DNA of 64,000 bases from an uncultured Candidatus Saccharibacteria bacterium. GTDB taxonomy: Bacteria > Patescibacteriota > Saccharimonadia > CAILAD01 > BJGX01. Below the pieces are notes generated by a model. It worked only from the letters and a program-made list of their open reading frames with translations. It ran no database searches and had not been told where the DNA came from. The translations under genes and the position numbers were made by a program. Of the stretch, positions 1,752 through 38,320 are shown one piece after another (position 1 is the first letter of the stretch; the number at the start of each line of letters is the position of its first letter). The stretch covers positions 1,332-65,331 of the forward strand of contig CAYMHI010000003.1 of NCBI GenBank assembly GCA_964390265.1, written 5' to 3'.

Positions 1752-2297
1752 ATGCCCAAAATACTTATTGTAGAAGACGAAATTAGTTTGCGAGATGTGT
1801 ATGCTGCACGCCTGGAGGCTGATGGATATCAGATTGTTGTAGCCGGAAATGGCGAAGAGGCCCTAGCTACTGCCGTCAAAGAGCGACCAGATCTTATTTT
1901 GCTAGATATTATGATGCCCAAAATATCTGGATTTGACGTATTAGATATTATTCGTACTACCCCCGAGATTGCCGACACCAAAGTAATAATGATGACTGCA
2001 CTATCTTCACCCGAAGACCGAGCCCGCGGTGAAAAACTAGGAGTCAATAGATACCTTGTAAAGTCTCAGGTGGTACTTGAAGAAATGGTTAAAACAATTT
2101 CTGACGTTTTACAAGAACCCTCAAAGGGGGGCTCAACTCATGATGACCTAGTAGGTGCTAGCGGAAATCAACGAGCAGCAGTCAGTGCCGAAGATTTAGC
2201 TAAGGTAGAAGCCGGCACACCACCAGAAACAAGCTCAAATGCGCCAAGCGAGTCGACTCTTGCCGATAAAACCGCTAGTCCTCGATCTGAAGAATAA
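1752..2297 (+). CDS. Response regulator with CheY-like receiver domain and a C-terminal low-complexity Ser/Ala/Glu-rich tail
   Basis: N-terminal acidic pocket (VEDE), phospho-acceptor Asp in DLILLDIMMPK, conserved T (MMTA) and K; no DNA-binding output domain recognisable. Confidence 0.65.
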   Translation: MPKILIVEDEISLRDVYAARLEADGYQIVVAGNGEEALATAVKERPDLILLDIMMPKISGFDVLDIIRTTPEIADTKVIMMTALSSPEDRARGEKLGVNRYLVKSQVVLEEMVKTISDVLQEPSKGGSTHDDLVGASGNQRAAVSAEDLAKVEAGTPPETSSNAPSESTLADKTASPRSEE

Positions 2298-2330: not shown

Positions 2331-3677
2331 TTGGTGAGTATGCTTATATCTGATAATATATATTATATGCGTACACTAATAGCTGATCTAATTAACCATC
2401 CAAATAGCAACAAAACAATTTCGGGCTGGCTTCACAAGCGAAGACTACTTGGTGGTATTAATTTTTTAATTATCAGAGATAGAACCGGACTAGTGCAGGT
2501 GCTGGTAAAAGACGAGGTAGAGATAAAAAAACTTGATGGTATGCAGTTGGGTACGGTACTAACCATAAGCGGTACAATCGTTACTGATGAAAGAGCACCG
2601 GGCGGGGTAGAGATTCACGAACCTAATATTGACGTAGACACACCAGTGGTTGATGTAATGCCAATTGAGATAGACAAACCTATTAGTCACAAGCCCGAAC
2701 ATTTAGAAACGCTGTTTGAAAACCGCGTACTTAACCTTCGCAATGTAGAGGAGCAAAAAATATTTAAAATTCGTTCAAGCATTAATCGATACATTCGTGA
2801 ATATCTACATCAAACTAGTTTTGTTGAAATACAAACCCCCAAGATATTGGCCGAAGCCACTGAAGGTGGGGCCGAAGTATTTAAGCTTGACTACTATACT
2901 AGAGAGGCCACCCTGGCTCAAAGCCCTCAACTTTACAAGCAAATCATGGTGGGGGTCTATGAGAGAGTATTTGAGATTGGCCCAGCATACCGAGCCGAGC
3001 CGAGCACAACCACTCGCCACATGAGCGAAGTGACTATGCTAGATATTGAGATGGGTTTTGTAAAAAACCATACTGAAGTGCTTGATTTTGTAGGTAATAT
3101 GACCATAGAAGTGATAAAAAGAACTTACGATGAACACGCCAATGATCTAAAAAGCTTAGGTGCACCCGAGCTAAATCTAACTAACGAGGTACCTAAGTAT
3201 ACCGTAGCTCAAATTCACGAACTTTACACCAAAGACACCGGCAATGATACCACCAACGAGAAAGACCTAATTCCGGCAGAAGAGCGCTGGATAAGTGAGT
3301 ATGCCCAAGAAAAACATAGTACCGATCTAGTTTACGCCACCGAGTTCCCTGTAGAGGCAATGAAGTTTTATCATCAGATCAATCCTGAGAACCCAAAAAC
3401 GGTCTTGTGGGGCGACCTGTTATTTAGAGGTCTTGAGATATCAACCGTACCGCTGCGAGAGCATCGATACGAAGTGTTAATTGAGCAGATGAAAAAAGCC
3501 GGATTAGATGTGACCCACCCGGGCTACAAGTACTATTTACAAGCATTTAAGTTTGGCCTACCTCAGCACGGCGGCTGTGGCTTTGGTATTGACCGGTTTG
3601 TAGAAAAGCTCATTGGTCTTAACAATGTTAAAGAAGCGACGCTTTTCCCGCGGGATATGCAAAGACTAACGCCATAG
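2331..3677 (+). CDS. Class II aminoacyl-tRNA synthetase of the AspRS/AsnRS subgroup. Most likely archaeal-type aspartate--tRNA ligase, possibly non-discriminating.
   Basis: N-terminal OB-fold (FLIIRDRTGLVQV), QSPQLYKQ, motif 2 GPAYRAE, motif 3 GGCGFGIDRFV...LFPRD; length 448 aa. Confidence 0.7.
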   Translation: MVSMLISDNIYYMRTLIADLINHPNSNKTISGWLHKRRLLGGINFLIIRDRTGLVQVLVKDEVEIKKLDGMQLGTVLTISGTIVTDERAPGGVEIHEPNIDVDTPVVDVMPIEIDKPISHKPEHLETLFENRVLNLRNVEEQKIFKIRSSINRYIREYLHQTSFVEIQTPKILAEATEGGAEVFKLDYYTREATLAQSPQLYKQIMVGVYERVFEIGPAYRAEPSTTTRHMSEVTMLDIEMGFVKNHTEVLDFVGNMTIEVIKRTYDEHANDLKSLGAPELNLTNEVPKYTVAQIHELYTKDTGNDTTNEKDLIPAEERWISEYAQEKHSTDLVYATEFPVEAMKFYHQINPENPKTVLWGDLLFRGLEISTVPLREHRYEVLIEQMKKAGLDVTHPGYKYYLQAFKFGLPQHGGCGFGIDRFVEKLIGLNNVKEATLFPRDMQRLTP

Positions 3678-9896: not shown

Positions 9897-10748
9897 ATGA
9901 ATATACAAGAATTATCATATAATAGCAATAGTTATCCGCAGCTTTTAAGCAACATATCATCACCGCCCAAAAAACTCTACTGCTTAGGGCAAATTCCTGA
10001 CTTACCTATGGTGGCAATTGTTGGTAGCCGTAAACCAAGTAATTATGGCGAACAAATGACCCACCAATTAGCCTACGACCTCGCCAGTGCTGGAATGTGC
10101 ATAGTAAGTGGCTTAGCCTACGGCGTAGATGCAATTGCGCACCGTGCCGCACTTGAGGCTGGTGGAAAAGTAGTGGCCGTACTGGGCACACCACTAGACA
10201 CTATCTACCCAGCAGCCAATAGAGATCTCGCCAAAAAAATACTTGGCCATGGAGGAGCCATATTAAGTGAATACGAGGTAGGTACCAATACTCAACGATT
10301 TAATTTTCCGGCTCGCAATAGAATAATAGCTGGCTTAAGCTTAGCCACCATTATCACCGAGGCTAATGCCCAGAGCGGCAGCCTTATAACCGCTAATTTT
10401 GCCATCACTAACGATAGGTTGGTAATGGCCGTACCAGGTAACCTCACCAGCCCACGAAGTGCTGGGCCCAATAATCTCATTAAACTAGGCGCCAAACTAA
10501 TTACCGATGCCACCGATGTGCTAGCCGAACTAGAACTCAAAAGTAGTGTATTGCAGGCCAAAAAGATTGCTCCCGCTAGTAAAGAGGAGGCTATAGTATC
10601 CGAACTAATCGCCGCAGGGCATAACAACACTCATACCATGATAGAAAATAGTGAGTTTGATGCCGCCCGGCTTGCACATGTTCTTAGCCTAATGGAGATT
10701 ACTGGCAAGATACGTAATCTTGGTGCCGGACAGTGGATGTTGAATTAA
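9897..10748 (+). CDS. dprA: DNA processing protein DprA (Smf), Rossmann-like DNA-binding domain
   Basis: AIVGSRKPSNYGEQ...GLAYGVDAIAHRAALEAGGKVVAVLGTPLD signature. Start placed at the internal ATG (MNIQEL...) rather than the ORF-track start 9813, because the first 28 codons are hydrophobic and poorly DprA-like. Confidence 0.7.
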   Translation: MNIQELSYNSNSYPQLLSNISSPPKKLYCLGQIPDLPMVAIVGSRKPSNYGEQMTHQLAYDLASAGMCIVSGLAYGVDAIAHRAALEAGGKVVAVLGTPLDTIYPAANRDLAKKILGHGGAILSEYEVGTNTQRFNFPARNRIIAGLSLATIITEANAQSGSLITANFAITNDRLVMAVPGNLTSPRSAGPNNLIKLGAKLITDATDVLAELELKSSVLQAKKIAPASKEEAIVSELIAAGHNNTHTMIENSEFDAARLAHVLSLMEITGKIRNLGAGQWMLN

Positions 10749-16621: not shown

Positions 16622-17689
16622 ATGCCAATTAAGAAACAAAATGTAAGTCAAAAACAGCTAGATTCACTTATTAATGACAGTCTTGAGTTACTCAAAAAAG
16701 ACCGAGATAGAGAGATATTACTACGACGCTACGGTGTAGCCACTGGTAAAACCCAAACTCTAGAACAAATTGGCCAAGACTTAGGCATTACTCGTGAACG
16801 TGTTCGACAGATAGAGAAGGCAGCTATCACCAAGATTCGCGAGCAAGCTCGTCACGATCATGAACTAAATGACATATTAGTAGCTATTACCAATGAAAAG
16901 GGCGGAATAATTGGCTTCGCCTCGCTAATAAATGAACTCGGCCTTGATGGAAAGCAACGTCCGCACTTAAGTTTTTTACTCAAACTTAACCCCAACTTTA
17001 CCTTTTTAGACCGTAGTGATCAGCACGCTGATTTGGTGTTTCTAAGTGACAGCTACAAAGAGGATGGGGTACGTAAATTACACGAACAAATCATAACTGT
17101 CGCCAAAGAGAGTGGCAAACCAGTTAAATTTGATAAATTAGTCAGTAAAATTAGCGGTGAGCACAAAACACAATCACTGCAAGAGCTAGCAGCGGCCAGC
17201 ACCCAGTTAGCTCAACTAGATAACGTATGGGGGTTAAGCATATGGCCTGAGGTCAACCCTAAAAGCATTCGTGACAAAATATATTTGGTACTCAAAAAGG
17301 GTGGTCGCCCAATGCACTTTACCGAAATTTCTACAAAAATAGAGGTAATGCCTGCCAACCCCAAAAAAGTTACTACTCAAGCCGTGCACAATGAGCTTAT
17401 TAAAGACTCTAGATTCGTGCTGATTGGTCGAGGTATTTACGCACTAGGCGAATGGGGCTATCAAAGCGGCACGGTTGCCGATATAATTGAAGAAGTACTA
17501 CGAGAAAATTCACCAATTAGCAGAGAAGATATTATTACTCAAGTTTTGGCTCGCAGACAAGTCAAAACTACCACTATCACGCTAAATCTGCAAGAAAAAC
17601 CGCAATTCGTACGTACCAGCAATGGCGATTATCAGCTCAAAAAGGGCTATAAGCCCAGCCCTAGCAAAAGCCGTCGCGGCGGTCGGTAA
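16622..17689 (+). CDS. DNA-binding protein with N-terminal sigma-70 region-4-like HTH and C-terminal HARE-HTH-like domain(s)
   Basis: LLRRYGVATGKTQTLEQIGQDLGITRERVRQIEKAAITKIR (sigma r4 pattern); MHFTEISTKIE...DSRFVLIGRGIYALGEWGY (RpoE-delta/HARE-HTH pattern). Confidence 0.5.
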   Translation: MPIKKQNVSQKQLDSLINDSLELLKKDRDREILLRRYGVATGKTQTLEQIGQDLGITRERVRQIEKAAITKIREQARHDHELNDILVAITNEKGGIIGFASLINELGLDGKQRPHLSFLLKLNPNFTFLDRSDQHADLVFLSDSYKEDGVRKLHEQIITVAKESGKPVKFDKLVSKISGEHKTQSLQELAAASTQLAQLDNVWGLSIWPEVNPKSIRDKIYLVLKKGGRPMHFTEISTKIEVMPANPKKVTTQAVHNELIKDSRFVLIGRGIYALGEWGYQSGTVADIIEEVLRENSPISREDIITQVLARRQVKTTTITLNLQEKPQFVRTSNGDYQLKKGYKPSPSKSRRGGR

Positions 17690-17757: not shown

Positions 17758-20475
17758 ATGAATACTTTGCTCTCATTTATTTCAACTTCTATAGCCGTGA
17801 TTGGTACAATTCTTTTTCAGTTTTGGGGCTGGACGCTAATTGCTGCATATCTTATATTTATGATATGGAAGAATAACCAAAAAGTTGAGTACATCAAAAC
17901 ATCCGAACATAATCTACTCCACATAGTGGTTCCCAAAGATAACGAAAAAAAAGAACTCTCGGCCGAGCAAATGTTTGCCAGCCTACACGGCATATTGCAA
18001 TCTACTAGCGAGTTAACCCAAGAGAAACGCATACAAGACCATATAAGTTTTGAAATTGTCGCTCGCGACTCAGTAATTCATTTTTACGTATGGACGCCCA
18101 AACAACTTAAAGACTTTGTGACTAGCCAAATCTATGCACAATATCCTACCGTGCAAATTAGTGAGATGGCTCATGACTATGCCGAGCAAGAAGGTTTAGA
18201 CCCCAACCGAGTATATTCTACCGAGATTACCCTTATTAAAGACGAAATATTTCCTATAAGAACTTTTCAAACCTTTGAGGTTGACCCCTTGGCTGGCCTA
18301 ACGACCGTGTTGGCCTCAATAACCGAAGGTGAACAGTTGTGGATTCAATTCTTGATGGAGCCAGTAGATGATAGCTGGCACAAAAAAAGTCTGCAATACA
18401 TTAGTGAGATAGTGAATGGTAAAAAACCCGGTAGATTCGAGAATCTTGGTGCTAAATCGTTGGTAGCTATTAAGGCTCTCTCGGTACCACCCAGCGTTCA
18501 AGCCGCCAATGATAAAAAACCCGAAAAAAAAGAGCTTAGTCCTGGGCAAACTACACTCAACTCTGCTATCGAAACTAAGGCCGAAAAGCTCGGCTACGCT
18601 GTAAAAATTAGAGCTGTCTACGTTGGCGACAACGACACTGCCGCCAAAACTCGTATGCAAGCTCTCGTAGGAGGCTTTAAGCAATTCAACACGATTAACC
18701 TAAATGGTTTTACTAATACTGGTCTACTTAACGGCGAGGCCGCTTTAAAACAGTATCAAGAGCGTGAATTTGATGATGCCGGATATGTACTGAATATTGA
18801 AGAAATTGCAAGTCTTTATCACTTACCGCACACCAGTGTAGAGACTCCAGGTGTGGCCTACACTAGCACCAAGGTGGGAGAGCCGCCCAGCAATCTACCA
18901 ACCGTTAACAACACTCCAGCTAAGGATATAAGCTTGTTTGGTGTTACCACATTTAGGCAAGCTAATATTAAGTTTGGTATCAAACGCGAAGATCGCAAAC
19001 GTCATATGTATATCATTGGTAAATCCGGAAGTGGTAAATCATTCTTGCTTAATCTTTTAACCCTATCTGACATCTACCATAACGAAGGTTTTGCAGTAGT
19101 CGACCCTCACGGCGATTATGCTCAAGATATGTTGCGCTACATACCCGAACACCGCCTAGACGATGTAGTATACTTCAACCCCGCCGATGGTGAATTTCCG
19201 GTGGCCTTTAATCCAATGGAAGTTTATGATGTCAATCGCCGAAGCAACGTTGCCTCCGAAATTGTTGGGGTACTGAAAAAAATGTTTGGTGACAGTTGGG
19301 GGCCACGACTTGAGCATATCTTGCGCTATACACTACTTGCATTACTAGAAACCCCTAACACAACCCTCTTGGGCATTACCAGAATGCTAACCGATAAAAA
19401 ATATCGAAATGAAATAATTGCTAACGTTCAAGACCCGGTTGTAAAAGCCTTTTGGATAAATGAATTTGCCAGCTGGAACGATAAATTCGCCTCTGAGGCT
19501 GTAGCGCCGGTACTTAACAAGGTTGGAGCTTTCACTGCCAACCCTTTAATTCGTAATGTTATTGGTCAAGAAAAAAGTACCTTTAGTATTCGTAAAATGA
19601 TGGATGAAGGCAAGATCTTAATTGTCGATCTTAGTCGCGGTAAAATAGGTGAAGACAATGCCAGTATATTAGGTAGTCTACTGATTACAAAGATTCAGCT
19701 TGATGCTATGAGCCGAGCCGATATACCTAATATTGATGATCGCCGGCCGTTTTATCTATATGTCGACGAATTTCAAAATTTTGCTACTGAAAGTTTTGCC
19801 GTAATTCTGTCTGAAGCTCGAAAATACGGACTGTATTTAACGGTAGCTAATCAATATATTGCCCAAATGCCCGAAGAAGTAAGGGATGCAGTATTTGGTA
19901 ATGTAGGTAGTATGATTACTTTTAGAGTGGGCGCCGAAGATGCTACTAGCTTAGCCCGTTACTTTGAACCTGTATTTGAGCCTCTAGATTTAGTAAATTT
20001 GGATAAACAAGATATATACGTTAGTATGAGCATTGACGGTCAAACTAGTCTGCCTTTCTCAGCAAAGACTCTATTTGTACCTAAATCTCCATCTGATCAA
20101 TCGGCTAAGATTTTGGAACTAAGTCGCCATAAATACTCAAGCGGTAAAGCCAGCGTAGAAGACGCTATCGCGAAATGGAGCGGTATGAATGAAGAAAAAC
20201 CTACCGATAACTCGGGTGGGGGATCAAATACCGAACAAAAAATTGCCGGTACCGCTGCTAGCTTGCCATCGCTTAGAGTGAGTGGAGCCGAGCCCAAAAA
20301 ATACAGCGAGATGGTAAAAGGTAAAAGTCAAAATATTAATAATCGCCAAAACCAACCTTATAGACCTAATAATAATCAAGGTGGTGGTCAACGCCGCGAC
20401 GACAACCGAAGGGGCAATAACTCTAGTAGCCAAGGCGGCCATAATAAACCATTCTACCCCAAAAAGAAAAACTAG
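17758..20475 (+). CDS. Membrane-anchored FtsK/HerA-superfamily ATPase of the TraG/TraD/VirD4 type-IV-coupling-protein type. It has a roughly 380-aa unknown domain between the N-terminal TM hairpin and the NTPase, and a C-terminal Gly/Asn/Gln/Arg-rich disordered tail.
   Basis: Two N-terminal TM segments; Walker A IIGKSGSGKSFLLNLL about 420 aa in; Walker B-like YLYVDEFQNF about 240 aa later (spacing typical of T4CPs); low-complexity tail NNRQNQPYRPNNNQGGGQRRDDNRRGNN. Confidence 0.55.
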   Translation: MNTLLSFISTSIAVIGTILFQFWGWTLIAAYLIFMIWKNNQKVEYIKTSEHNLLHIVVPKDNEKKELSAEQMFASLHGILQSTSELTQEKRIQDHISFEIVARDSVIHFYVWTPKQLKDFVTSQIYAQYPTVQISEMAHDYAEQEGLDPNRVYSTEITLIKDEIFPIRTFQTFEVDPLAGLTTVLASITEGEQLWIQFLMEPVDDSWHKKSLQYISEIVNGKKPGRFENLGAKSLVAIKALSVPPSVQAANDKKPEKKELSPGQTTLNSAIETKAEKLGYAVKIRAVYVGDNDTAAKTRMQALVGGFKQFNTINLNGFTNTGLLNGEAALKQYQEREFDDAGYVLNIEEIASLYHLPHTSVETPGVAYTSTKVGEPPSNLPTVNNTPAKDISLFGVTTFRQANIKFGIKREDRKRHMYIIGKSGSGKSFLLNLLTLSDIYHNEGFAVVDPHGDYAQDMLRYIPEHRLDDVVYFNPADGEFPVAFNPMEVYDVNRRSNVASEIVGVLKKMFGDSWGPRLEHILRYTLLALLETPNTTLLGITRMLTDKKYRNEIIANVQDPVVKAFWINEFASWNDKFASEAVAPVLNKVGAFTANPLIRNVIGQEKSTFSIRKMMDEGKILIVDLSRGKIGEDNASILGSLLITKIQLDAMSRADIPNIDDRRPFYLYVDEFQNFATESFAVILSEARKYGLYLTVANQYIAQMPEEVRDAVFGNVGSMITFRVGAEDATSLARYFEPVFEPLDLVNLDKQDIYVSMSIDGQTSLPFSAKTLFVPKSPSDQSAKILELSRHKYSSGKASVEDAIAKWSGMNEEKPTDNSGGGSNTEQKIAGTAASLPSLRVSGAEPKKYSEMVKGKSQNINNRQNQPYRPNNNQGGGQRRDDNRRGNNSSSQGGHNKPFYPKKKN

Positions 20476-20576
20476 AATTGCATTTGAGTTATTGCCTAAG
20501 TATTGACTTATTATAGTATTTATGCTATCATATTTACGTACCCATTTAGTCCCCAATACAGAAATGAGCAAGATCG

Positions 20577-20936
20577 GTGCCTACCAAACCCATCACTCTC
20601 GCTGTAATACTGGGCCTGTGCCTAACCCTCCTGGTGAGCTGTAGCCACAAGACGACCGAAGCGAAGTCGTCTGTTGTGCTGCCTCACCTGGCCGTCAGCA
20701 CGACGTCAACAGCACCGGTGCATCACTACGCACCAGGTTACACCGTAGAGGCCACCTGTGCCTTCTCAGTGAATATCTGTGTGCCTACCAACAGCGCAGT
20801 AACCCAGAGTATTCGCTCGCCACAGATTGCCCCCAATGGCAGTGGCGAGTATGCACCACAGGTTCGTCTGGAAGACGGTTCAACCTGTGTGTGGATGACA
20901 GATTTCCACGACTACCTGTGCTCGCGCCCAAAGTAG
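20577..20936 (+). CDS. Putative lipoprotein (119 aa) with 6 Cys in the mature part. GTG start. Strongly GC-shifted relative to neighbours.
   Basis: Signal peptide with lipobox LVSC; local GC about 53% versus about 40% in flanks; followed by a hairpin terminator. Confidence 0.4.
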   Translation: MPTKPITLAVILGLCLTLLVSCSHKTTEAKSSVVLPHLAVSTTSTAPVHHYAPGYTVEATCAFSVNICVPTNSAVTQSIRSPQIAPNGSGEYAPQVRLEDGSTCVWMTDFHDYLCSRPK

Positions 20937-20942
20937 TCAACC

Positions 20943-20990
20943 GCCGCCCTACACCATCAACGATGATGGAGTGGGGCGGCTTTCATTTAT
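20943..20990 (+). terminator. Rho-independent terminator (imperfect 9-bp plus 6-bp compound stem, T-rich tail CTTTCATTT)
   Basis: GCCGCCCTA...TGGGGCGGC pairing with inner CCATCA/TGATGG seen in the sequence. Confidence 0.5.
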
Positions 20991-21917
20991 GAACTATATT
21001 AAATACCGAATAGGGGAGCGGGCTAACAAATACCGAACTGCGGATAGTATAAATAATGTGGTAGATTGTTGGTATAGTAGTTTTTAGTATCAAGACATAA
21101 TCCGCACCTGAAAGGATGGAGATGATCAATCAAAACTACAAACTCCAATTAGCCTAGAACGCTTCCCCTATCTTTTGTATTGATTTTCAATTCACTATTC
21201 CCTACCATCATTCTGCAGTAGTAATAGAGAAGCAATAAAATTTCTCATTGCAAAATCACACCGTAATTGGTCGCGCAGCTTTGACGGCTATCCTAGCTAA
21301 TTATATTGCGGCGCCTGATTAATATGTAAACACCCAACGCAAAACATTTACAATGAGCGCCAAGCTGACTACAGTAGCAAACGTGCTAGCCCTATTACCA
21401 ACTCTTCGCAATAGTTGAGGGTATCTTAAATGCTTTGTCGTCAATGGGGATGTATGATAAATCAACTTAGGTTAATAATAAACTTAGTCGCACAATGTTT
21501 ATTTTGCGACGTATACTATCTATTTAACTAATAAATACATTTTAGCAGATTATTTGTTTATTATATCATCAAATTTTTGTTCCCTGTTTTTCTCCCCTGT
21601 TATATGCCGTTACAATTTGTTGTGGTAACGTAGCCTATATATAGAATATAACATATATAGTAGTAAACATAAACCGAACATGCCACAGTAGTATTGGTAG
21701 CATGACTTTAGCAGTTTTTTACAGACCATTTGAACGAGGTAGTATTTTTACAAATTCTTGTTTCTATATACTTTTTACATTTTACATATATTATGAGCTA
21801 CTAGCTGTCTTTTTTATGTCTTTTACAAAATAGTTATCCACAATCAGCCGTGAAACATTATATATTGTACGTTGTATTTTATACAATGCTGTTTCTCTAC
21901 TCTAATTAAGCTCTTCC

Positions 21918-30703: not shown

Positions 30704-31416
30704 GACTGCCACTCTTTATAGAGCGTGTAGTCTACATTACTTTGGCCGCCATCAGCAAATATAACAGCACCATTTATATAGCTTGATTGCTCTGATAATA
30801 AAAATGTCACTATGTTTGCTATCTCTTGTGGGGTTCCAATGCGACCTAGTGGAGTAATTTCTTCAGCCGCCTTCTTGATAGTATCATTTTCTGGTCCCAT
30901 ATCTGTATCTATCCAACCAGGAGCAATTGCATTTACTCTTATTCCCTTGTAGCCAAGCACATTACCGAGGCTCTTGGTAAGACTAATAAGCCCAGACTTT
31001 GCTGCAGAGTACGCAAAACCTACAAATGCTCCTGTGGCAGCATCGTTACTAACTATATTTACAATTGCACTACCTTTTTCCATATTTTTGCTTAATGCTT
31101 CAACTACAATGTAAGGTGCGGTTAGCATAATTTCAATAGACTTATCCCACTTATCTAAGTCAAAAAGCTCTATACTTTCTTCTTCGAACAAACCCGCACA
31201 GTTCACAATATAATCAAATTTTACTGTACTCAATTCCTTGACTAAACTTAGTGTTTGATCCCTATTTGACAGGTCTACTCGACGATAAAGAATTTCTTCA
31301 TTTTTGGGTTTTGTAGTATTGTATGTACCCACTACTTCAATACCATCAGAAATGAGTTTTCTAGCTACAGCAAGTCCTATACCTTTTGACGCCCCTGAGA
31401 CAAAAGCTCTTTTCAT
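30700..31416 (-). CDS. Short-chain dehydrogenase/reductase (SDR) family oxidoreductase
   Basis: N-terminal SGASKGIGLAVARKL cofactor-binding motif; Y-x3-K (YSAAK). Confidence 0.7.
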   Translation of the reverse strand: MKRAFVSGASKGIGLAVARKLISDGIEVVGTYNTTKPKNEEILYRRVDLSNRDQTLSLVKELSTVKFDYIVNCAGLFEEESIELFDLDKWDKSIEIMLTAPYIVVEALSKNMEKGSAIVNIVSNDAATGAFVGFAYSAAKSGLISLTKSLGNVLGYKGIRVNAIAPGWIDTDMGPENDTIKKAAEEITPLGRIGTPQEIANIVTFLLSEQSSYINGAVIFADGGQSNVDYTLYKEWQS

Positions 31417-32774
31417 TTCAACTTATCGCCTAAATAGCTTTTTAGCTCAGTTATCTTAATCCGATCCTGCTTCATACTATCTCGCTCTCTAACCGTAACA
31501 GCCTGGTCTTCTAGGCTTTCAAAATCTACCGTAACACAATATGGTGTACCTATCTCGTCTTGGCGGCGGTAGCGCTTACCTATTGATTGGGTTTCGTCAT
31601 ACTCAACGTTGTAATCACCCGCTACATTCTTAAACACATCTCGAGACAAATCTGTCAGTTCAGATTTTTTACTGAGTGGCAAAATGGCAACTTTGACAGG
31701 CGCCAAATCGACCGGAAGGCGCAATACTACCCGCTCCTCATTACCGACTTTCTCGGTAGTGTAAGCATCGAGCAAAACCGCCATAAACAACCGCTCTACC
31801 CCCACTGAAGGTTCAATAACATAAGGTACAATACTCTCGCCACTCTCTTCATCAAAATAACTCAAATCTTTTCCAGACGCCTTCATGTGGCTTTTAAGAT
31901 CGTGGTCGGTACGATTAGCAATTCCGTAAAGTTCTTTAAACCCAAATGGATATTTGTATTGAATATCACTGCTGGCCTTGGCATAGTGGGCACGCTCGTC
32001 TTCACTGTGTTCATGCCATTTAAGATTATCGGCTTTAATGCCCAGACTCTGTACCCATTTGAGACAATCTTTCTTCCAAAACTCAAACCATTTTTCGGCT
32101 TCATCAGGGCGGGTAAAAATTTCAAGTTCCATCTGGCTAAATTCTCTCACTCTAAAAATAAAATCCCCAGGAGTAATCTCATTACGAAAGGCCTTACCTA
32201 TTTGAGCAATACCAAATGGTAGTTTCTTGCGTGCTGTTTCGCGCACCAAGTCGTATTGTGCGAAAATTCCACCAGCGGTTTCGGGTCGTAAGTATGTAGT
32301 GGCAGCATCGTCTTCTACCGGGCCCACGAAGGTCTTAAACATCATCTGAAAATTCCGTGGTTCAGTAAGAGTACCTTTTTTGCCACAACTCGGGCAAGCT
32401 TTGTTTATAATTTCAGCATTTAACTTGTTAAGATCGCTAGTATCCATATCGGCAACATGATCGGCGCGAAATCGATGTTTGCAGCTTTTACAATCAACCA
32501 TAGGATCTACAAAAGTATCGACATGACCGCTAGCCTGCCAAAGTTTGGGGTTTTGAATAATTGCAGAGTTTAGACCAATGATATTAAAGTTGCTGTATAC
32601 AAAGTGACGCCACCAAGACGCTTTAATGTTGTTGGCCAGTTCGCTACCATATGGCCCAAAATCGTAAAATCCAGATAGACCACCGTAAATTTCGCTGGCC
32701 TGAAATACAAAACCGCGCCTTTTACAAAAACTTACTAGTTCTTCCATACTGATATTCGATGATATTTTTTCCAT
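31413..32774 (-). CDS. glyQS: Glycine--tRNA ligase (alpha2 dimeric type)
   Basis: N-terminus ...CKRRGFVFQASEIYGGLSGFYDFGPYG characteristic of GlyRS; 453 aa. Confidence 0.8.
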   Translation of the reverse strand: MEKISSNISMEELVSFCKRRGFVFQASEIYGGLSGFYDFGPYGSELANNIKASWWRHFVYSNFNIIGLNSAIIQNPKLWQASGHVDTFVDPMVDCKSCKHRFRADHVADMDTSDLNKLNAEIINKACPSCGKKGTLTEPRNFQMMFKTFVGPVEDDAATTYLRPETAGGIFAQYDLVRETARKKLPFGIAQIGKAFRNEITPGDFIFRVREFSQMELEIFTRPDEAEKWFEFWKKDCLKWVQSLGIKADNLKWHEHSEDERAHYAKASSDIQYKYPFGFKELYGIANRTDHDLKSHMKASGKDLSYFDEESGESIVPYVIEPSVGVERLFMAVLLDAYTTEKVGNEERVVLRLPVDLAPVKVAILPLSKKSELTDLSRDVFKNVAGDYNVEYDETQSIGKRYRRQDEIGTPYCVTVDFESLEDQAVTVRERDSMKQDRIKITELKSYLGDKLK

Positions 32775-32788
32775 AAAGATATTATACC

Positions 32789-33508
32789 CTACAAATCATT
32801 ACCTTGAAAAACTTTGGTGCTTTTAAATTTAATATCAAAATGATATTCATAGTAGCGCATAAGTAACTTCTCACCTTCTTCAATTGCGTGGCTAATATTC
32901 TGTAATTTAGCAAGACTACTAAGTTGATGTGACAATATTAATCGCCATAGCTTAATTGTAGGTATAGAAATTATGCCATAGTGGCCCTGCGGCCTAGATC
33001 TAGATAATTTACCCGACCCGTATACCAAATAATGATTATTACCTAGCTTTGTATCGGTTAAATCTGGTTGATTACCAGTTGAGCTTAAAAAATTAAGACC
33101 AAAGTATTGACGAACCAGCAAAGCATCTACTCCAGTATGCAGAGCTCGTAAACATTCTGTAACTAAATTTATAGCTGTTGTGTTAGGCTCCCCTTCGGCT
33201 GATAATTTTCCTAAAATTTCTATTATTAAATAAGCTGTTTGAAGGGCTTGCGAACTCAATTTTGATAAATCAGACAATTCTATTGCTTCCGCACCAATAA
33301 TAATATCTAAATTTCTACCTTTGGTGAGTCTTATCTTGCAAAGCGTAAATGGCTCTAAGTGTCCGGCTAGTTTTGCCTGGGCCTTCCTAACCCCCTTAGC
33401 AATTGTCTTTTGTTTACCCTCTTCAATGCTAAATATTGTTATTATGCGATCAGCTTCACCAAGATTTTGATGATGAATAATATAACCAGTCAGCTCCCTG
33501 TACTTCAT
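32789..33508 (-). CDS. recO: DNA repair protein RecO
   Basis: N-terminal OB-fold pattern GYIIHHQNLGEADRIITIFS; Cys/His cluster absent (short form). Confidence 0.65.
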   Translation of the reverse strand: MKYRELTGYIIHHQNLGEADRIITIFSIEEGKQKTIAKGVRKAQAKLAGHLEPFTLCKIRLTKGRNLDIIIGAEAIELSDLSKLSSQALQTAYLIIEILGKLSAEGEPNTTAINLVTECLRALHTGVDALLVRQYFGLNFLSSTGNQPDLTDTKLGNNHYLVYGSGKLSRSRPQGHYGIISIPTIKLWRLILSHQLSSLAKLQNISHAIEEGEKLLMRYYEYHFDIKFKSTKVFQGNDL

Positions 33509-33897
33509 TGTTCTTTATTTAATGATAGTAAGTGCCCAATATTTTTTACCAATTGCCCTGGTGTTATGCGTGTTTTTACATAGTAGGCATCTACGCCTAA
33601 GCTATCACGTACGCTATTATGCAGATTAATATCTGGCTGAGTAAGATTAGTTAATATAACTATCTTGGTTTTTTTAAGGTTAATATTTTGTCGCATTGAC
33701 TTAATTAATGCTATTCCGTTAGTGCCAGGCAAGAGAATATCTACAATCACACAATCTGGGGTATTTTTTACTAGCCAATCAAGCGCGGCTTTGGCATTAT
33801 TTTTTGTAGTTAGCTTATAATTTGCATTAGTAAATTTGAGTTTATACATTTCACTCAAAATTTTATCTTCTTCTACTAAGAGAATACTCGGTTTCAT
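33505..33897 (-). CDS. Single-domain response regulator (CheY-like receiver). Its stop overlaps the recO start (ATGA).
   Basis: LLVEED acidic pocket; phospho-acceptor Asp in CVIVDILLPG; conserved T/K positions. Confidence 0.6.
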   Translation of the reverse strand: MKPSILLVEEDKILSEMYKLKFTNANYKLTTKNNAKAALDWLVKNTPDCVIVDILLPGTNGIALIKSMRQNINLKKTKIVILTNLTQPDINLHNSVRDSLGVDAYYVKTRITPGQLVKNIGHLLSLNKEQ

Positions 33898-33907
33898 TTA
33901 CTTAACT

Positions 33908-34639
33908 CTACTCCTTTAACGGCGATTCATCAAATACATTGAGCTGCCGCGCAAGCGGGACATGAATATATAAAAACTGCTGATTTTGCACCAACTTTGT
34001 TGTAATTGTTACATTTAAGCATTGGAGTATTGCTACTACGTAGCCACACACAATCAAATCTAGATTCATATTTTTGATTGGCCCAAGGTATTTGGTGGAG
34101 TTTGAAAACACATGAAAAATATCTTTTTCGAGCCAAGAGTGCTTGGGTGCTCTAATGGTAATAACGCCATAGCGAGCACTTTTTCTAAAACCTAGAGTTA
34201 GTCTTTTGGTTGTCGTAAAAGCAGTTAGTAAAACACCAAGGGTTTGGGCTAATGCCCCAAGCTGAGTATAAATAAGTATTTTGTCGTTAATACTATTCAT
34301 ATTAAACTTAACACCTTCAAAATTTTTATAAATCTCTTCAACCAGCTGCTTGAAATAAAAGCTTTTACTAGCACTCTCCTCTAGACCAGTAAGAATTTGT
34401 AACGAATCAAGTAACACTACAGTTTGATGATAATTTTTAGTTAACCGAGTAAGTTGACCAATTATAGACCGTTGTTTGGAGTTAGCCTTGAGGTTCAATT
34501 CCTCTAGGTATCCCAGCATGGCTCGCTCAGAATTATTAATGTTCTTTGTGATGCCAAAAAGTGTAAATGTTAGGCCATTTTGGGCGCTCCATTCTTTCTT
34601 TACTGCATCAATACTGTTTATACCCTCCAAGATCTTCAT
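33908..34639 (-). CDS. Hypothetical protein with a degenerate RecA/KaiC-like fold (pseudo-ATPase lacking an intact Walker A)
   Basis: Aligns by eye to the KaiC-domain pattern: GINSIDAVKK...GLTFTLFGITKN occupies the Walker A position, and VVLLDSLQIL resembles the Walker B / hhhhDS motif. Confidence 0.35.
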   Translation of the reverse strand: MKILEGINSIDAVKKEWSAQNGLTFTLFGITKNINNSERAMLGYLEELNLKANSKQRSIIGQLTRLTKNYHQTVVLLDSLQILTGLEESASKSFYFKQLVEEIYKNFEGVKFNMNSINDKILIYTQLGALAQTLGVLLTAFTTTKRLTLGFRKSARYGVITIRAPKHSWLEKDIFHVFSNSTKYLGPIKNMNLDLIVCGYVVAILQCLNVTITTKLVQNQQFLYIHVPLARQLNVFDESPLKE

Positions 34640-34700
34640 TACTATCTAGACTAACTGCTACAGCAAGTTGTTGGCAAGCATTAGCAATAATGTGTGTTAG

Positions 34701-35414
34701 CTATGGATTGAGGTGAACATTTTTGACGATAGCGTTAAATACATCTATATAGGTGGCGTTATCGTCGGTCTGAATAGTAAATGTTTTATCACGTAAAGGA
34801 ACCATTACGATTGTACCGTTTGGAATTTTAGTACCAATTTGTCCGGTATATCGCATACCTTTAATGCCTGAAACTGTGGTTTCTTCGGCCGTTACTTTTC
34901 TTTTGGCTACAACTTTTTCTTGAGCTAAAGTATCGAGAGGCTTTTTGAGTGAATCGATTGATTTTTCAGCCAGAGCAAATCTTAGGGCATATTGAGTCAG
35001 CTTGGTGTTTACTTCGTCAGGCATAGCAATTCCAGAGATAGTATTACCACTATCTTCTGGCGTGGTAGTGAGACTCCATGATTTGGGAATATCTATAGTG
35101 AAGCTGCCAGCGGCCTCAGGGGCAGTGTAGGTTCTAAAATCAGCATTGAGTTTTTTTGCAAATTGCTCTTCATCGAGTTTCTTTTGGGCCGTCGCACCCT
35201 CATTTTGGCCTTGTTTTAGGGTTGCAGCAATTTTGTTGTCATTGATAAAAGCCTTAGCGCCAAATACCATAACCAATATTAATAATATTGCAGCCACTCC
35301 ACCAAGAACCATCAGCAAAGTCTTATAGAGCTTTTCTTTTTTGTTGCCAGGGTTACCGTCAGGTTTACTGGTAGGTACTTCTGGAAGATTATTGTATGGT
35401 ACTTGGGGGTCCAT
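34701..35414 (-). CDS. Membrane-anchored/secreted hypothetical protein (N-terminal TM after a Pro/Gly/Lys-rich cytoplasmic head)
   Basis: ORF track; single hydrophobic segment LLMVLGGVAAILLILVMVFGA. Confidence 0.35.
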   Translation of the reverse strand: MDPQVPYNNLPEVPTSKPDGNPGNKKEKLYKTLLMVLGGVAAILLILVMVFGAKAFINDNKIAATLKQGQNEGATAQKKLDEEQFAKKLNADFRTYTAPEAAGSFTIDIPKSWSLTTTPEDSGNTISGIAMPDEVNTKLTQYALRFALAEKSIDSLKKPLDTLAQEKVVAKRKVTAEETTVSGIKGMRYTGQIGTKIPNGTIVMVPLRDKTFTIQTDDNATYIDVFNAIVKNVHLNP

Positions 35415-35420
35415 GATATA

Positions 35421-35942
35421 TTAAAGGTTCTTTTGCCCTGGCTCCCAGTCTATTGGACACAATCCACCCGTCTGCAAAGCCTTCACTACTCTCATAGTTT
35501 CGTCCACGCTACGACCTACATTACTATCAGATATCACTACGTATCGCAGATTGCCTTCAGGGTCAATAATAAACGTTCCTCTTTCGGCTTCGCCATTTTG
35601 CTCATTTAAAACCTCGTAGTCACGTGACAGCTGGTGGTTAGTATCGGCCAAAACCGGAAACTCTACATCTGACAAATCACGCTCAAACCAAGCTTTATGC
35701 GAGTGTACGCTATCGGTACTTACTCCTAAAATCTCTGTGTCGATTTTGGCAAACTCCTTGGAGTGCTTGGCAAAACCATTTATTTCGGTTGGACACACAA
35801 AAGTGAAATCTCGGGGATAAAAGAAAAGCACCACCCACTTACCTTTGTAATCTTTTAAGCTAACTTCTTTGAAATCATCTTTTAATCTCTTTTGATATGC
35901 CGGGACTGAAAATTCTGGTGCGGGTTGATTTAGTTTTAACAT
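35421..35942 (-). CDS. Peroxiredoxin (AhpC/TSA family)
   Basis: Peroxidatic Cys motif FTFVCPTE. Confidence 0.75.
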   Translation of the reverse strand: MLKLNQPAPEFSVPAYQKRLKDDFKEVSLKDYKGKWVVLFFYPRDFTFVCPTEINGFAKHSKEFAKIDTEILGVSTDSVHSHKAWFERDLSDVEFPVLADTNHQLSRDYEVLNEQNGEAERGTFIIDPEGNLRYVVISDSNVGRSVDETMRVVKALQTGGLCPIDWEPGQKNL

Positions 35943-35951
35943 AATTTTCTC

Positions 35952-36605
35952 CTATTGTTTTTTGTTAAATGTAGGAATATTTTGTTCTATTCGCTTATTG
36001 ACAATATTCCAATCTATTAATTGCATAAAAGCCTCAATATAACCTTTGCGAGCCGTTGCATAATCTAAGAAATAGGCATGCTCATACACGTCAAGTACCA
36101 ACAACGGCACGGTAGACCATATACCACCTTGGTTGTGAACATCGCATATATAGTTATCTACGGTTCCTGCTTCGTAATCCCAGGCTAGCACTACCCAGCC
36201 ACGCGAAGCCAATCCCATAGCTGCAAACTGGTCGGCCCATGTATAAATACTACCCCATTTATCTTCTATTAACTCTTTTATTGCACCAGCACAATCTTGT
36301 CTTTGGTCGGTCATATTCTCAAAGTACCACTCGTGTAATTTAACGCCGTTTAGGGCAAACCCCTTTTCAAGCTGTAACTCACGAAGTTCAGAATATGTTG
36401 CATTTGCAAGCTTATTGTCGACTTTTTCAAGTAATTCGACTATTTCATTGTATTTATTGACATAGCCAACGTACAAAACATCGTGGTGCTCTTGGAGTTG
36501 TTTTTGCGATATACCCTCGAGCTCGATATATTTTAACGGTTTTGGTTCTAGTTTTTGTAATTTACTCATGAGTCTATTGTAGCTTAAACCATAACTACTA
36601 GTCAA
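35952..36605 (-). CDS. Fe/Mn-family superoxide dismutase
   Basis: C-terminal DVYEHAYFLDY (the D-x-W/Y-E-H-A-Y-Y-L-D-Y SOD signature); N-terminal HH pair. Confidence 0.7.
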   Translation of the reverse strand: MTSSYGLSYNRLMSKLQKLEPKPLKYIELEGISQKQLQEHHDVLYVGYVNKYNEIVELLEKVDNKLANATYSELRELQLEKGFALNGVKLHEWYFENMTDQRQDCAGAIKELIEDKWGSIYTWADQFAAMGLASRGWVVLAWDYEAGTVDNYICDVHNQGGIWSTVPLLVLDVYEHAYFLDYATARKGYIEAFMQLIDWNIVNKRIEQNIPTFNKKQ

Positions 36606-37084
36606 AACTTATAAAAATGCGTGTTTTTATTTTTATAAGTAATTTGAGTATTGGGCAGTTCAAATACAAAGCTAGCAAAGTAGCTACCAGTCTTCATTTC
36701 GCTACGAAGCTTCTCTTCTAGCTTTTGCATATGTTTGGTTAATAAAAAAGTAAATACCAAGTCTGCATTTGAAATGTCAGCCCTCCAAAAACTTTTAAAC
36801 TTGACCTTGGCATTAGGATACCTTCGCAGTCTATAAACCGAAATTAACCATAAATATGGGTTGATTTCATAACCAACGGCCCTATAGCCTTTTTGCGCGG
36901 CTAATAACACCATTCTGCCGTCACCCGAGCCTAAATCAATTACCAAATCATTTTTAGCAAGTTTTACTTTGTTAAATATTTGTTTTAAAAATTTTGTGTT
37001 GGTTGGCACGTATGGTGCCCCAAAAAATATTGAGTAACAATACAATAGTACAAGTACACCTGCTACACAGTATAGAATAATCAT
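36602..37084 (-). CDS. Small membrane-anchored class I SAM-dependent methyltransferase-like protein
   Basis: Motif I VIDLGSGDGRMVLLAA and acidic post-I (GYEINP); N-terminal TM. Confidence 0.4.
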   Translation of the reverse strand: MIILYCVAGVLVLLYCYSIFFGAPYVPTNTKFLKQIFNKVKLAKNDLVIDLGSGDGRMVLLAAQKGYRAVGYEINPYLWLISVYRLRRYPNAKVKFKSFWRADISNADLVFTFLLTKHMQKLEEKLRSEMKTGSYFASFVFELPNTQITYKNKNTHFYKF

Positions 37085-37101
37085 ATATATTCCTTGGTAG
37101 A

Positions 37102-37569
37102 TTACTTATTTTCTTTTAGCCACTTTTCTACTTCACTCACCGTTTTGAGTGGTTGAATCTTGGGCCAAGCATGTAGAATTTCTAAATTTGGCCCTACAAG
37201 GACGGCTGAGCGAATTATTCCCATAAACTTACGTCCATACATGCTCTTTTGGCCCCAGGCTCCATAGGCTTCAATCATTTTAGTGCTAGGATCGGCCAGA
37301 ATAGTAAATGGTAACTTATGCTTTTGAGAGAATTTTAAATGACTGGCTACATCGTCTTTACTTACACCAATTACGTCAATCCCCTTGGCTTGTAGGCTTT
37401 CAAAATTATCACGTAAACTACAAGCTTGAGCTGTGCAGCCTGGCGTTTCGTCTTTGGGGTAAAAATATATCAGAGTAGTTTTACCCATTATGTCTTTTAA
37501 ACTATTCGGGATGTTGTTTTGATCTAATAATTTGTAATCTGGTGCTTGATCGCCCGCTTCTAATGCCAT
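37102..37569 (-). CDS. bcp: Thiol peroxidase Bcp (thioredoxin-dependent peroxiredoxin)
   Basis: YFYPKDETPGCTAQAC active-site motif. Confidence 0.75.
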   Translation of the reverse strand: MALEAGDQAPDYKLLDQNNIPNSLKDIMGKTTLIYFYPKDETPGCTAQACSLRDNFESLQAKGIDVIGVSKDDVASHLKFSQKHKLPFTILADPSTKMIEAYGAWGQKSMYGRKFMGIIRSAVLVGPNLEILHAWPKIQPLKTVSEVEKWLKENK

Positions 37570-37573
37570 ATTT

Positions 37574-38320
37574 CTAGTTCCTCTCTCTTAAGTACTGATC
37601 CCACTTATGAAACAGTGCCGTGGTGGCCCGTAAATCATCAACATTGTAACGAGCTATCTCTAGGCCTTTTCCGGCCTTATAATACTCGCCTACCTGGCTG
37701 CCGTCCATTTCGCCCTTAGGCGAATCAATACCAAAAGCCCTGCACCACCGGTGTAAGCTGCCTCTATACATCGCTGTGCCATAAAAGCTCAATAGCTCGG
37801 CTAGATCATAATGTACTGCGCCTGGGTACCTGCTTGAGTTGTAACGATTAGATATAAGGTCTTTGCTGGGGCGAATACTGTGAATGGCCGAGCGAATATT
37901 GATATATGGTACATCTGAGCGACGCCCAAAAAAACTTATAAATTCATCAGCCGTTTCAGCCAAAGCCCAAAACTTTACCAATATTTCAGGCTCAGTCATC
38001 GGTACGTATTTGATATCACCTTCTTCTAAATCTTTTTGTTTCCCACTAGGGTCTTGATAATATACTGCACCCTTCTCGGTATCTATATCGTACACGCCAA
38101 TTGCCACAATAAATCCCGTGAGGGGGCTAAAAACCAATTTATCTTTTACATACTCAAGTTCTTTTTCGTACCCCTTGGGGTCTTCTTTTTTATCTGGCGC
38201 CTGTTTAAGTAAATCTTTTTGGGTAATGGCGTCAAAATCATCCCAGTTTTCGGCCGCAAACTCTACATCGAATACTAATCTTTTTTTCTGCATTGGTTTA
38301 TTATACTCGACCTCAAACAT
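37574..38320 (-). CDS. RNase H-like 3'-5' exonuclease-fold protein (DEDDy-type, PolB-exo/YprB-like)
   Basis: Exo I-like LVFDVEF and Exo III-like YNVDDLRATTALF (Y-x3-D). Confidence 0.4.
   Translation of the reverse strand: MFEVEYNKPMQKKRLVFDVEFAAENWDDFDAITQKDLLKQAPDKKEDPKGYEKELEYVKDKLVFSPLTGFIVAIGVYDIDTEKGAVYYQDPSGKQKDLEEGDIKYVPMTEPEILVKFWALAETADEFISFFGRRSDVPYINIRSAIHSIRPSKDLISNRYNSSRYPGAVHYDLAELLSFYGTAMYRGSLHRWCRAFGIDSPKGEMDGSQVGEYYKAGKGLEIARYNVDDLRATTALFHKWDQYLRERN

Follow-up and report, generated by a model that had tools for sequence, protein, structure and literature searches.

In a 64,000-nt stretch of DNA from an uncultured Candidatus Saccharibacteria bacterium (contig CAYMHI010000003.1 of assembly GCA_964390265.1, positions 1,332 to 65,331; here called the window), we examined a tightly packed trio of co-directional minus-strand genes (32789–34639) encoding a 243-residue protein that we call X, a stand-alone receiver, and RecO. 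The predicted fold of X and a chain of profile alignments through an intermediate protein identify it as a homologue of GHKL/Bergerat-type histidine kinases from which the phospho-acceptor His and the ATP-binding boxes have been lost. X is a signalling enzyme turned non-enzyme in one Saccharibacteria group, and not a new kind of system. We consider it probable that X is a minimal, catalytically dead kinase homologue that serves its receiver as a non-catalytic partner, by analogy with DivL of Caulobacter crescentus.

All coordinates of the module given here are on the minus strand. X (33908..34639) is a sensor-less pseudo-histidine kinase that comprises a DHp-like (dimerization and histidine phosphotransfer) hairpin, a CA-like (catalytic and ATP-binding) domain and a conserved tail, as delineated from its open reading frame (ORF), an AlphaFold model, Foldseek searches and its ratio of nonsynonymous to synonymous substitution rates (dN/dS). 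It is followed by the receiver gene (130 residues; 33505..33897), recO (239 residues; 32789..33508) and glyS (31413..32774), which encodes a dimeric class II glycyl-tRNA synthetase with tRNA-synt_2b and HGTP_anticodon domains. The successive intergenic distances are 10, −4 and 14 nt. A preliminary description of this DNA had proposed three minus-strand genes here, with a 10-nt gap between X and the receiver, an ATGA overlap with recO and a CheY-like single-domain receiver, and each of these features is borne out by the sequence. The receiver matches PF00072 above the gathering score (E = 7.9e-15; 55.4 bits, cut-off 30.2), and RecO matches the equivalog model TIGR00613 (E = 2e-29; 102.7 bits, cut-off 48.7) as well as both of its Pfam domains, RecO_N and RecO_C. 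The three genes are real because the module recurs in many independent metagenome contigs and because dN/dS is low: against an 82%-identical orthologue X gives 0.14, and RecO, like the membrane protein encoded upstream of X, gives 0.04. X is under purifying selection.

X alone matches no model in Pfam or NCBIfam. A word-indexed search of 5.8 billion proteins returned only three close relatives, and an exhaustive HMMER scan of 1.84 billion representative proteins yielded 15 X clusters, all of 215–250 residues. The family alignment used for modelling and for the conservation counts below contains 17 sequences. With this alignment AlphaFold produced a model of X with a predicted local distance difference test score (pLDDT) of 83.8 and a predicted template-modelling (TM) score, pTM, of 0.82; with only the three close sequences the model was unusable (pLDDT 44), and a confident one needed all 17. 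Two long helices (residues 23–50 and 54–84) are followed in the model by an α/β domain. Foldseek found 191 matches to the model in the PDB at E ≤ 1e-3, and all 50 of the matches listed are histidine kinases or kinase-fold proteins. The listed matches cover both DHp and CA and include CpxA (E = 4e-9), RetS (6dk7, among the best matches, E = 2e-8), ZraS (TM 0.53), DivL (4q20, TM 0.48, E = 1.9e-7), WalK, the phosphotransferase ChpT (4fpp, E = 4.9e-7) and KinB-like proteins. The DHp-like helical hairpin (residues 23–84; 34388..34573) can be aligned with its counterpart in CpxA, KinB and metagenomic kinases, and the CA-like, Bergerat-fold domain (residues 92–229; 33953..34366) has the fold but lacks the N, G1 and G2 boxes.

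The preliminary description had aligned X by eye with the KaiC/RadA P-loop domain, taking GITKN (residues 29–33) for a decayed Walker A motif and VVLLDSL (residues 74–80) for a Walker-B-like motif. Both strings are present, but they cannot be Walker motifs because both sit in the long DHp helices: in the model GITKN falls midway along helix 1 and VVLLDSL inside helix 2, whereas a Walker A motif would sit on a strand-loop-helix P-loop and a Walker B motif where a strand ends. Nor are the motif residues conserved; the family has Ala at column 29 in 13 of 17 members, and G29, T31 and K32 vary. No P-loop match for X was obtained from Pfam, NCBIfam, sequence and profile searches of the PDB, or the matches listed by the fold search. 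A phmmer search of the PDB with X returned only a chance match to a PTS IIB protein (E = 0.11), the family profile returned only coiled-coil noise such as dynactin, and no RecA or KaiC protein is among the listed Foldseek matches. Pfam searches with all 17 members gave nothing consistent, with HisKA or HATPase_c matched in none. GITKN is a decayed H-box and VVLLDSL is part of DHp helix 2. What survives of the pseudo-ATPase proposal is a degenerate ATPase fold without a working nucleotide site. The assignment to the KaiC/RecA family fails for want of any P-loop profile similarity; with a by-eye resemblance on one side and the searches, the helical placement and the homology chain to HisKA kinases (below) on the other, a KaiC/RecA/RadA-like P-loop protein has practically no chance of being the correct description of X.

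That homology chain runs through a second protein. The gene context of RecO relatives beyond the X clade (RecO 37–40% identical) revealed a sister-clade protein of 256–259 residues in the position of X, without a Pfam domain, that we call Y (L023:3793–4572 and L024:3825–4595). Y aligns with X (hhalign 95.7%, E = 9.6e-9, 191 columns) and with the cores of five metagenomic kinases (hhalign 97.3%, E = 1.8e-11, 221 columns), and the L024 protein has a HisKA match below the cut-off (E = 0.0016; 18.9 bits, cut-off 26.9). Among solved kinases Y matches KinB (3d36, E = 4.2e-4, residues 19–250) and also a hybrid kinase, RetS and DivL. It further matches 18 metagenomic kinases (best E = 7e-13), at least 14 of which are encoded directly upstream of a stand-alone receiver. 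A metagenome scan with Y found nothing; a scan with the receiver alignment found no recO-linked orthologous loci and supplied the bridging kinases instead. In a still more distant relative (RecO 34% identical) the position of X is occupied by a 960-residue GAF/PAS/HisKA/HATPase_c kinase, likened to X and Y by position and Pfam content only; here the order is kinase, 125-residue receiver, NUDIX gene, recO and glyS, with exoVII nearby. The model and these alignments, the latter transitively via Y, identify X as a GHKL/Bergerat-type histidine-kinase homologue. The X family is an unannotated, lineage-restricted family of pseudo-histidine kinases that has no Pfam or NCBIfam model.

The catalytic motifs of the kinases can be followed to their disappearance in an alignment bridging real kinases, Y and X. 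The H-box reads ASHQLRTPLTAVKGY in the real kinases, LLHQAKSPLVATAGF in Y and GITKNINNSERAMLGY in X. The corresponding segments (kinases, Y and X, respectively) are NIVDNAIKYT, QLGDIFSQHA and VLLT-AFTTT for the N box, SDTGEGM, LAPSLDR and RAPKHSW for G1, and GAGLGLY, DSELVVQ and NMNLDLI for G2. The decayed H-box of X (residues 27–48, LFGITKNINNSERAMLGYLEEL; 34496..34561) carries K32 in place of the phospho-acceptor His and contains the conserved patch G43-Y44-L45-E46-E47. The hhalign alignment of X with Y likewise puts K32 opposite the His of the Y sequence LLLHQAKSPL. Y has retained this His and is without G1 and G2; its phmmer alignment with KinB also lacks the ATP-binding boxes. Across the X family the former His column is occupied by Gln (five members), Lys (four), Thr (three), Glu (two), Arg, Gly or Ser. 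No His, Asp or Tyr is conserved on the DHp helices of the 17 members, no column among residues 1–90 has six or more His, and no Asn, Asp or Gly is conserved at the N, G1 and G2 positions. Because the His and all three boxes are lost, X, judged by its sequence, can neither autophosphorylate nor shuttle phosphate.

Other parts of X have been kept. G43 is present in 17 of 17 members and Y44 in 15 of 17; these are positions His+11 and His+12, a pair that reads G-Y in real kinases as in X and G-F in Y. These two positions reportedly set receiver specificity in HisKA kinases. At His+4, 15 of the 17 X members have Ser, Asn or Thr, Y has Ser and the related real kinases have Thr. Residues invariant across the family include G43, L193, P228, Q232, V235 and F236, and the last three lie in a C-terminal peptide (R-Q-L-N-V-F-D, residues 231–237; 33929..33949) with the pattern Q[L/M]xVF in all 17 members. 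This pattern is the lowest-entropy block of X. It starts 3 residues past P228, the Pro at the end of the CA-like domain, and 0–14 variable residues come after it; the segment is predicted to be disordered (pLDDT < 50 for residues 233–243). Where X has RQLNVF, the tail of Y reads RQLQLSLL or RQLHLDRLL. The length and fold of X persist across the 17 members even though sequence identity drops to ~20%.

The receiver, by comparison, has a complete phosphorylation site (E9/E10/D11, D53, T83 and K108), and E9, D11, D53, T83 and K108 are invariant in eight receiver orthologues. Among solved structures it is closest to two stand-alone receivers, 3t6k and RR468 (chain C of 3dge; E = 2.2e-10), the latter being the partner of the HisKA kinase HK853. 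The receiver gene lies 9–36 nt downstream of X in all loci. A scan of genome contigs with the receiver returned only unrelated receivers of Chloroflexi and Parcubacteria.

A conserved promoter-like element (TGCTTGCC, 18 nt, then TAGTCT; 34648..34680) ends ~8 nt before the ATG of X. In eight of eight loci, the Y clade included (the window, L001, L007, L008, L011, L022, L023 and L024), its GCTTG core (TGCTTGC[C/T]) stands equally far from the start codon. The spacer 5' of X or Y measures 50–77 nt, and the element is kept though X and Y share only ~20% identity. A generic sigma-70 scan did not flag it and was uninformative (32 promoter-like sites in the window, 29 expected); the element is not enriched in the window, and its weight is that of its cross-locus conservation only. 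We infer that it is the operon promoter, with a very short leader or none. No terminator-like site was found from X as far as glyS, where the closest candidate on the minus strand lies within the gene itself, and glyS probably belongs to the same transcription unit as the other three genes. All four genes would then be transcribed together from this putative promoter.

Translation signals also cross gene boundaries. The Shine-Dalgarno sequence of the receiver gene, AAGGAG (33911..33916), consists of the final pair of sense codons in X, for Lys and Glu. AGGAG or GAGGAG occurs just 5' of the X stop codon in four of seven loci, the window among them, and is absent from L007, L011 and L022. Many X members end in -KE or -EE, and this terminal conservation probably reflects an RNA rather than a protein constraint. 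The ATGA overlap of the receiver stop and recO start (33505..33508) is present in seven of seven X-clade loci, and we accept the earlier proposal that recO is translationally coupled to the receiver gene; the sister clade has either a 1-nt overlap (TAATG) or a gap of 26 nt there.

The order X, receiver, recO, glyS is found in every full-length X-clade locus examined and, with Y replacing X, in the sister clade, and recO and glyS are adjacent in all loci; the three-gene linkage is not peculiar to this genome. A functional tie to recombination is nevertheless possible but unsupported. It is unproven because the whole surrounding block is equally conserved: ~15 kb, with a DEAD-box helicase, a PolB-type exonuclease, peroxiredoxins and a superoxide dismutase (SOD), are syntenic in the lineage as far as mraZ/mraW and a penicillin-binding protein (PBP) gene. 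The linkage is further weakened as evidence by 4-nt overlaps that also join unrelated genes and by the NUDIX gene that splits the receiver from recO in the distant relative. Such overlaps occur in 3 of 56 co-directional pairs, including glyS and an unrelated short-chain dehydrogenase/reductase (SDR) gene, and we rejected the ATGA overlap by itself as functional evidence for that reason.

Several known systems resemble X in part. In DivL–DivK, as in X and its receiver, a DHp and CA fold without a phosphorylatable His is paired with a phosphorylatable stand-alone receiver. DivL is without kinase and phosphatase activity, yet its kinase core binds and detects DivK~P (PMC4211667). Unlike X, DivL is large, membrane-anchored and multi-PAS, with Tyr in place of the His and with its N, G1, F and G2 boxes retained, whereas X has 243 residues, no sensor, no ATP boxes, a former His position that varies, and the unique Q[L/M]xVF tail; no sequence-level relation between the two was detected beyond the common kinase fold. 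The arrangement of X and its receiver, which the preliminary description had taken to be undescribed, thus has a precedent as a pseudo-kinase with a single-domain receiver, though not beside recO, and no account of the module in Saccharibacteria turned up in the literature searched. ChpT and Spo0B are, like X, small and soluble proteins with a DHp and a Bergerat-like domain (dimers in the case of ChpT and Spo0B) that do not bind ATP and act on receivers. The kinase fold of ChpT, with its ATP pocket closed, works on receivers but needs the catalytic His (PMC3433190). ChpT and Spo0B shuttle phosphate on that residue, and X has no conserved His; we rejected a ChpT-like phosphotransferase role for X on this ground. 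Y, which keeps the H-box His and lacks G1 and G2, fits the ChpT/Spo0B type better and looks like either such a phosphotransferase or an intermediate stage of decay. RetS, PsmA of Streptomyces (PMC12963549) and a ChrS variant (PMC9491836) signal with a kinase fold by protein contact and without phosphotransfer, as proposed for X, but are large sensor or hybrid proteins. HisKA kinases paired with receivers, such as HK853–RR468 of Thermotoga maritima and the kinases with SHQLRTPL from L025–L101, share with X the order kinase then receiver, but run to 370–600 residues or more, begin with sensor or transmembrane parts and have the H, N, G1 and G2 boxes intact. RetS itself acts by heterodimerising with another kinase, and no partner kinase is known for X.

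We propose that the ancestor of X was a genuine HisKA kinase working with the stand-alone receiver encoded downstream. The kinase core fold would have persisted, but not the phospho-acceptor His, the three ATP-binding boxes (N, G1 and G2) or any sensor or transmembrane region. X would dimerise through its DHp and bind the receiver through the patch G43–E47 (His+11 to His+15); we propose this binding because the best-conserved DHp positions are those that dock receivers in real kinases and because the receiver is intact. X may then act on the receiver by reading, holding or localising it, perhaps in a way that depends on receiver phosphorylation, comparable to DivL and DivK~P, and may pass the state of the receiver through the disordered Q[L/M]xVF tail to a partner protein. 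Some observations weigh against this proposal. Direct sequence similarity of X to kinases is not significant on its own: hhalign against the E. coli EnvZ, CpxA and PhoR cores was not significant (0.2%), which is why the intermediate Y and closer kinases were needed, and the alignment of X with the five metagenomic kinase cores is collinear but weak (E = 1e-3, 21%, 195 columns). The DivL analogy is functional only, the boxes and PAS domains of DivL being absent from X. As to a phosphodonor, the 64-kb window contains no canonical kinase, only a second orphan receiver protein. X also evolves 2–3 times faster than its neighbours, with a ~3-fold more relaxed dN/dS, and its identity falls to 20–24%, against 47–55% for RecO, the receiver and the membrane protein, as would fit a protein on its way out.

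That last observation bears on the possibility that X no longer has a function and survives from a decayed two-component system only for the promoter and ribosome-binding site that it provides to the receiver, recO and glyS. The loss of all catalytic motifs, the position of X as the fastest-evolving gene of the block, the receiver Shine-Dalgarno sequence at its 3' end (seen in the window and in three further loci) and the promoter-like element just upstream would all agree with a relic. The dN/dS value and the narrow length range would not, and neither would a confident AlphaFold model obtained from co-variation in only 17 sequences, or six residues that stayed invariant while RecO diverged to 47%. 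Reduced Saccharibacteria genomes are, moreover, expected to purge dead genes, and we regard a relic as very unlikely. The main rival to a non-catalytic partner is instead a dedicated, DHp-based phosphatase of the phosphorylated receiver that would use the polar residue at the former His+4 position. The Thr or Asn of the HisKA motif H-E/D-x-x-T/N is reportedly the phosphatase motif, and domain A of EnvZ alone is said to have phosphatase activity; the preserved Ser, Asn or Thr at His+4 in X, Y and the related real kinases and the conserved receiver-docking patch would suit such a role. However, X has neither the His nor the acidic residue at His+1, the Pro at +5 has gone as well, Ser is not canonical at this position, and Ser or Asn could be a vestige of the H-box. 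A phosphatase therefore seems to us rather unlikely, though it deserves more weight than the other alternatives.

The module might also be a signalling input to recombination, repair or competence, as the preliminary description had suggested, in which the receiver or the tail of X acts on RecO or on a replisome hub such as the β sliding clamp. The receiver and recO are adjacent in all loci of the X and Y clades, with the ATGA overlap throughout the X clade; a kinase–receiver pair stands near recO, next to exoVII and NUDIX genes, even where RecO is only 34% identical; and the neighbours encode peroxiredoxins, SOD, a PolB-type 3'-5' exonuclease and a DEAD helicase. Yet the synteny of the entire block from the DEAD helicase to mraZ/mraW/PBP makes adjacency weak evidence, and the glyS/SDR overlap and the NUDIX gene between receiver and recO count in the same direction. 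The tail, in a terminus of X predicted to be disordered, resembles clamp-binding motifs such as QLNLF of UmuC, and the canonical motif is Q-φ-x-[L/M]-[F/L] or Q-φ-x-[L/M]-x-[F/L] (PMC11139829). With its invariant Val at position 4, Q-[L/M]-x-V-F is close to, yet outside, this published pattern, and the related real kinases carry a post-CA tail of their own (LPIRLNPKLL), so that the tail of X may be inherited. An input to repair is on balance unlikely. More specific still is an adaptor in which the dead core reads the phosphorylation state of the receiver and the tail docks the β sliding clamp or RecO/RecR; we hold this to be highly improbable, but if it were true, a two-component-derived switch would act on RecO-mediated recombination in reduced-genome, naturally competent Saccharibacteria.

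The region upstream of X has further features of its own. A conserved single-pass membrane protein of 237 residues without a Pfam match is encoded directly upstream (34701–35414, minus strand), and its sister-clade orthologue (L023:2163–2933) is 36% identical. We rejected it as a split sensor for X, an Ig-like (Big_1) gene separating the orthologue from Y. Immediately upstream of the module lies an oxidative-stress/nuclease cluster (35421–38320, minus strand), syntenic in all related loci, with a PolB-type 3'-5' exonuclease (DNA_pol_B_exo2), a Bcp/AhpC-TSA peroxiredoxin, a small methyltransferase, an Fe/Mn-SOD and a second peroxiredoxin; the SOD gene has a TTG start and overlaps the methyltransferase gene by 4 nt. 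As background to the competence idea only, dprA (9897–10748, plus strand; DNA_processg_A, E = 1.3e-74), which encodes the competence-specific recombination mediator, is 23 kb away, and no linkage to the module was seen.

The second orphan receiver protein (181 residues; 1752–2297, plus strand) matches PF00072 over residues 4–112 (E = 2.6e-24) and has a ~65-residue C-terminal extension without a Pfam match. Its gene is directly 5' of an Asp/Asn-tRNA synthetase gene (2340–3677, plus strand), with no kinase nearby; it is a curious parallel that both stand-alone receivers of the window are encoded just upstream of aminoacyl-tRNA synthetase genes. Elsewhere in the window, a gene between topA and a VirD4/TrwB-like gene encodes a 355-residue protein (16622–17689, plus strand) with the unusual combination of Sigma70 region 4 (residues 27–74) and HARE-HTH (residues 218–278). 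The VirD4/TrwB-like coupling-protein homologue itself (905 residues; 17758–20475, plus strand) has a long, low-complexity C-terminus rich in Gly, Asn, Gln and Arg. The interval 3' of its gene (20476–21917) holds a small putative lipoprotein ORF (20577–20936) with a GTG start and an LLVSC lipobox, followed by ~1 kb without an ORF of at least 50 residues before ftsQ, in which Rfam finds nothing.

Within one candidate phylum there appears to be a stepwise decay series, from a 960-residue sensor kinase through a ~256-residue form that has the His and no ATP site to a 243-residue form with neither, with the receiver intact throughout. Identifying X as kinase-derived corrects a tempting KaiC/RecA-like misreading and defines an unannotated family as kinase-derived pseudoenzymes. 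Unless a tie to recombination is borne out, the practical importance of the finding is modest. The conserved, probably co-transcribed X–receiver–recO–glyS unit is one that could be knocked out in cultivable, transformable Saccharibacteria strains. X and its receiver are a natural test case for how two-component partners are repurposed in shrinking genomes, and for the role of a stand-alone receiver once its kinase is dead.

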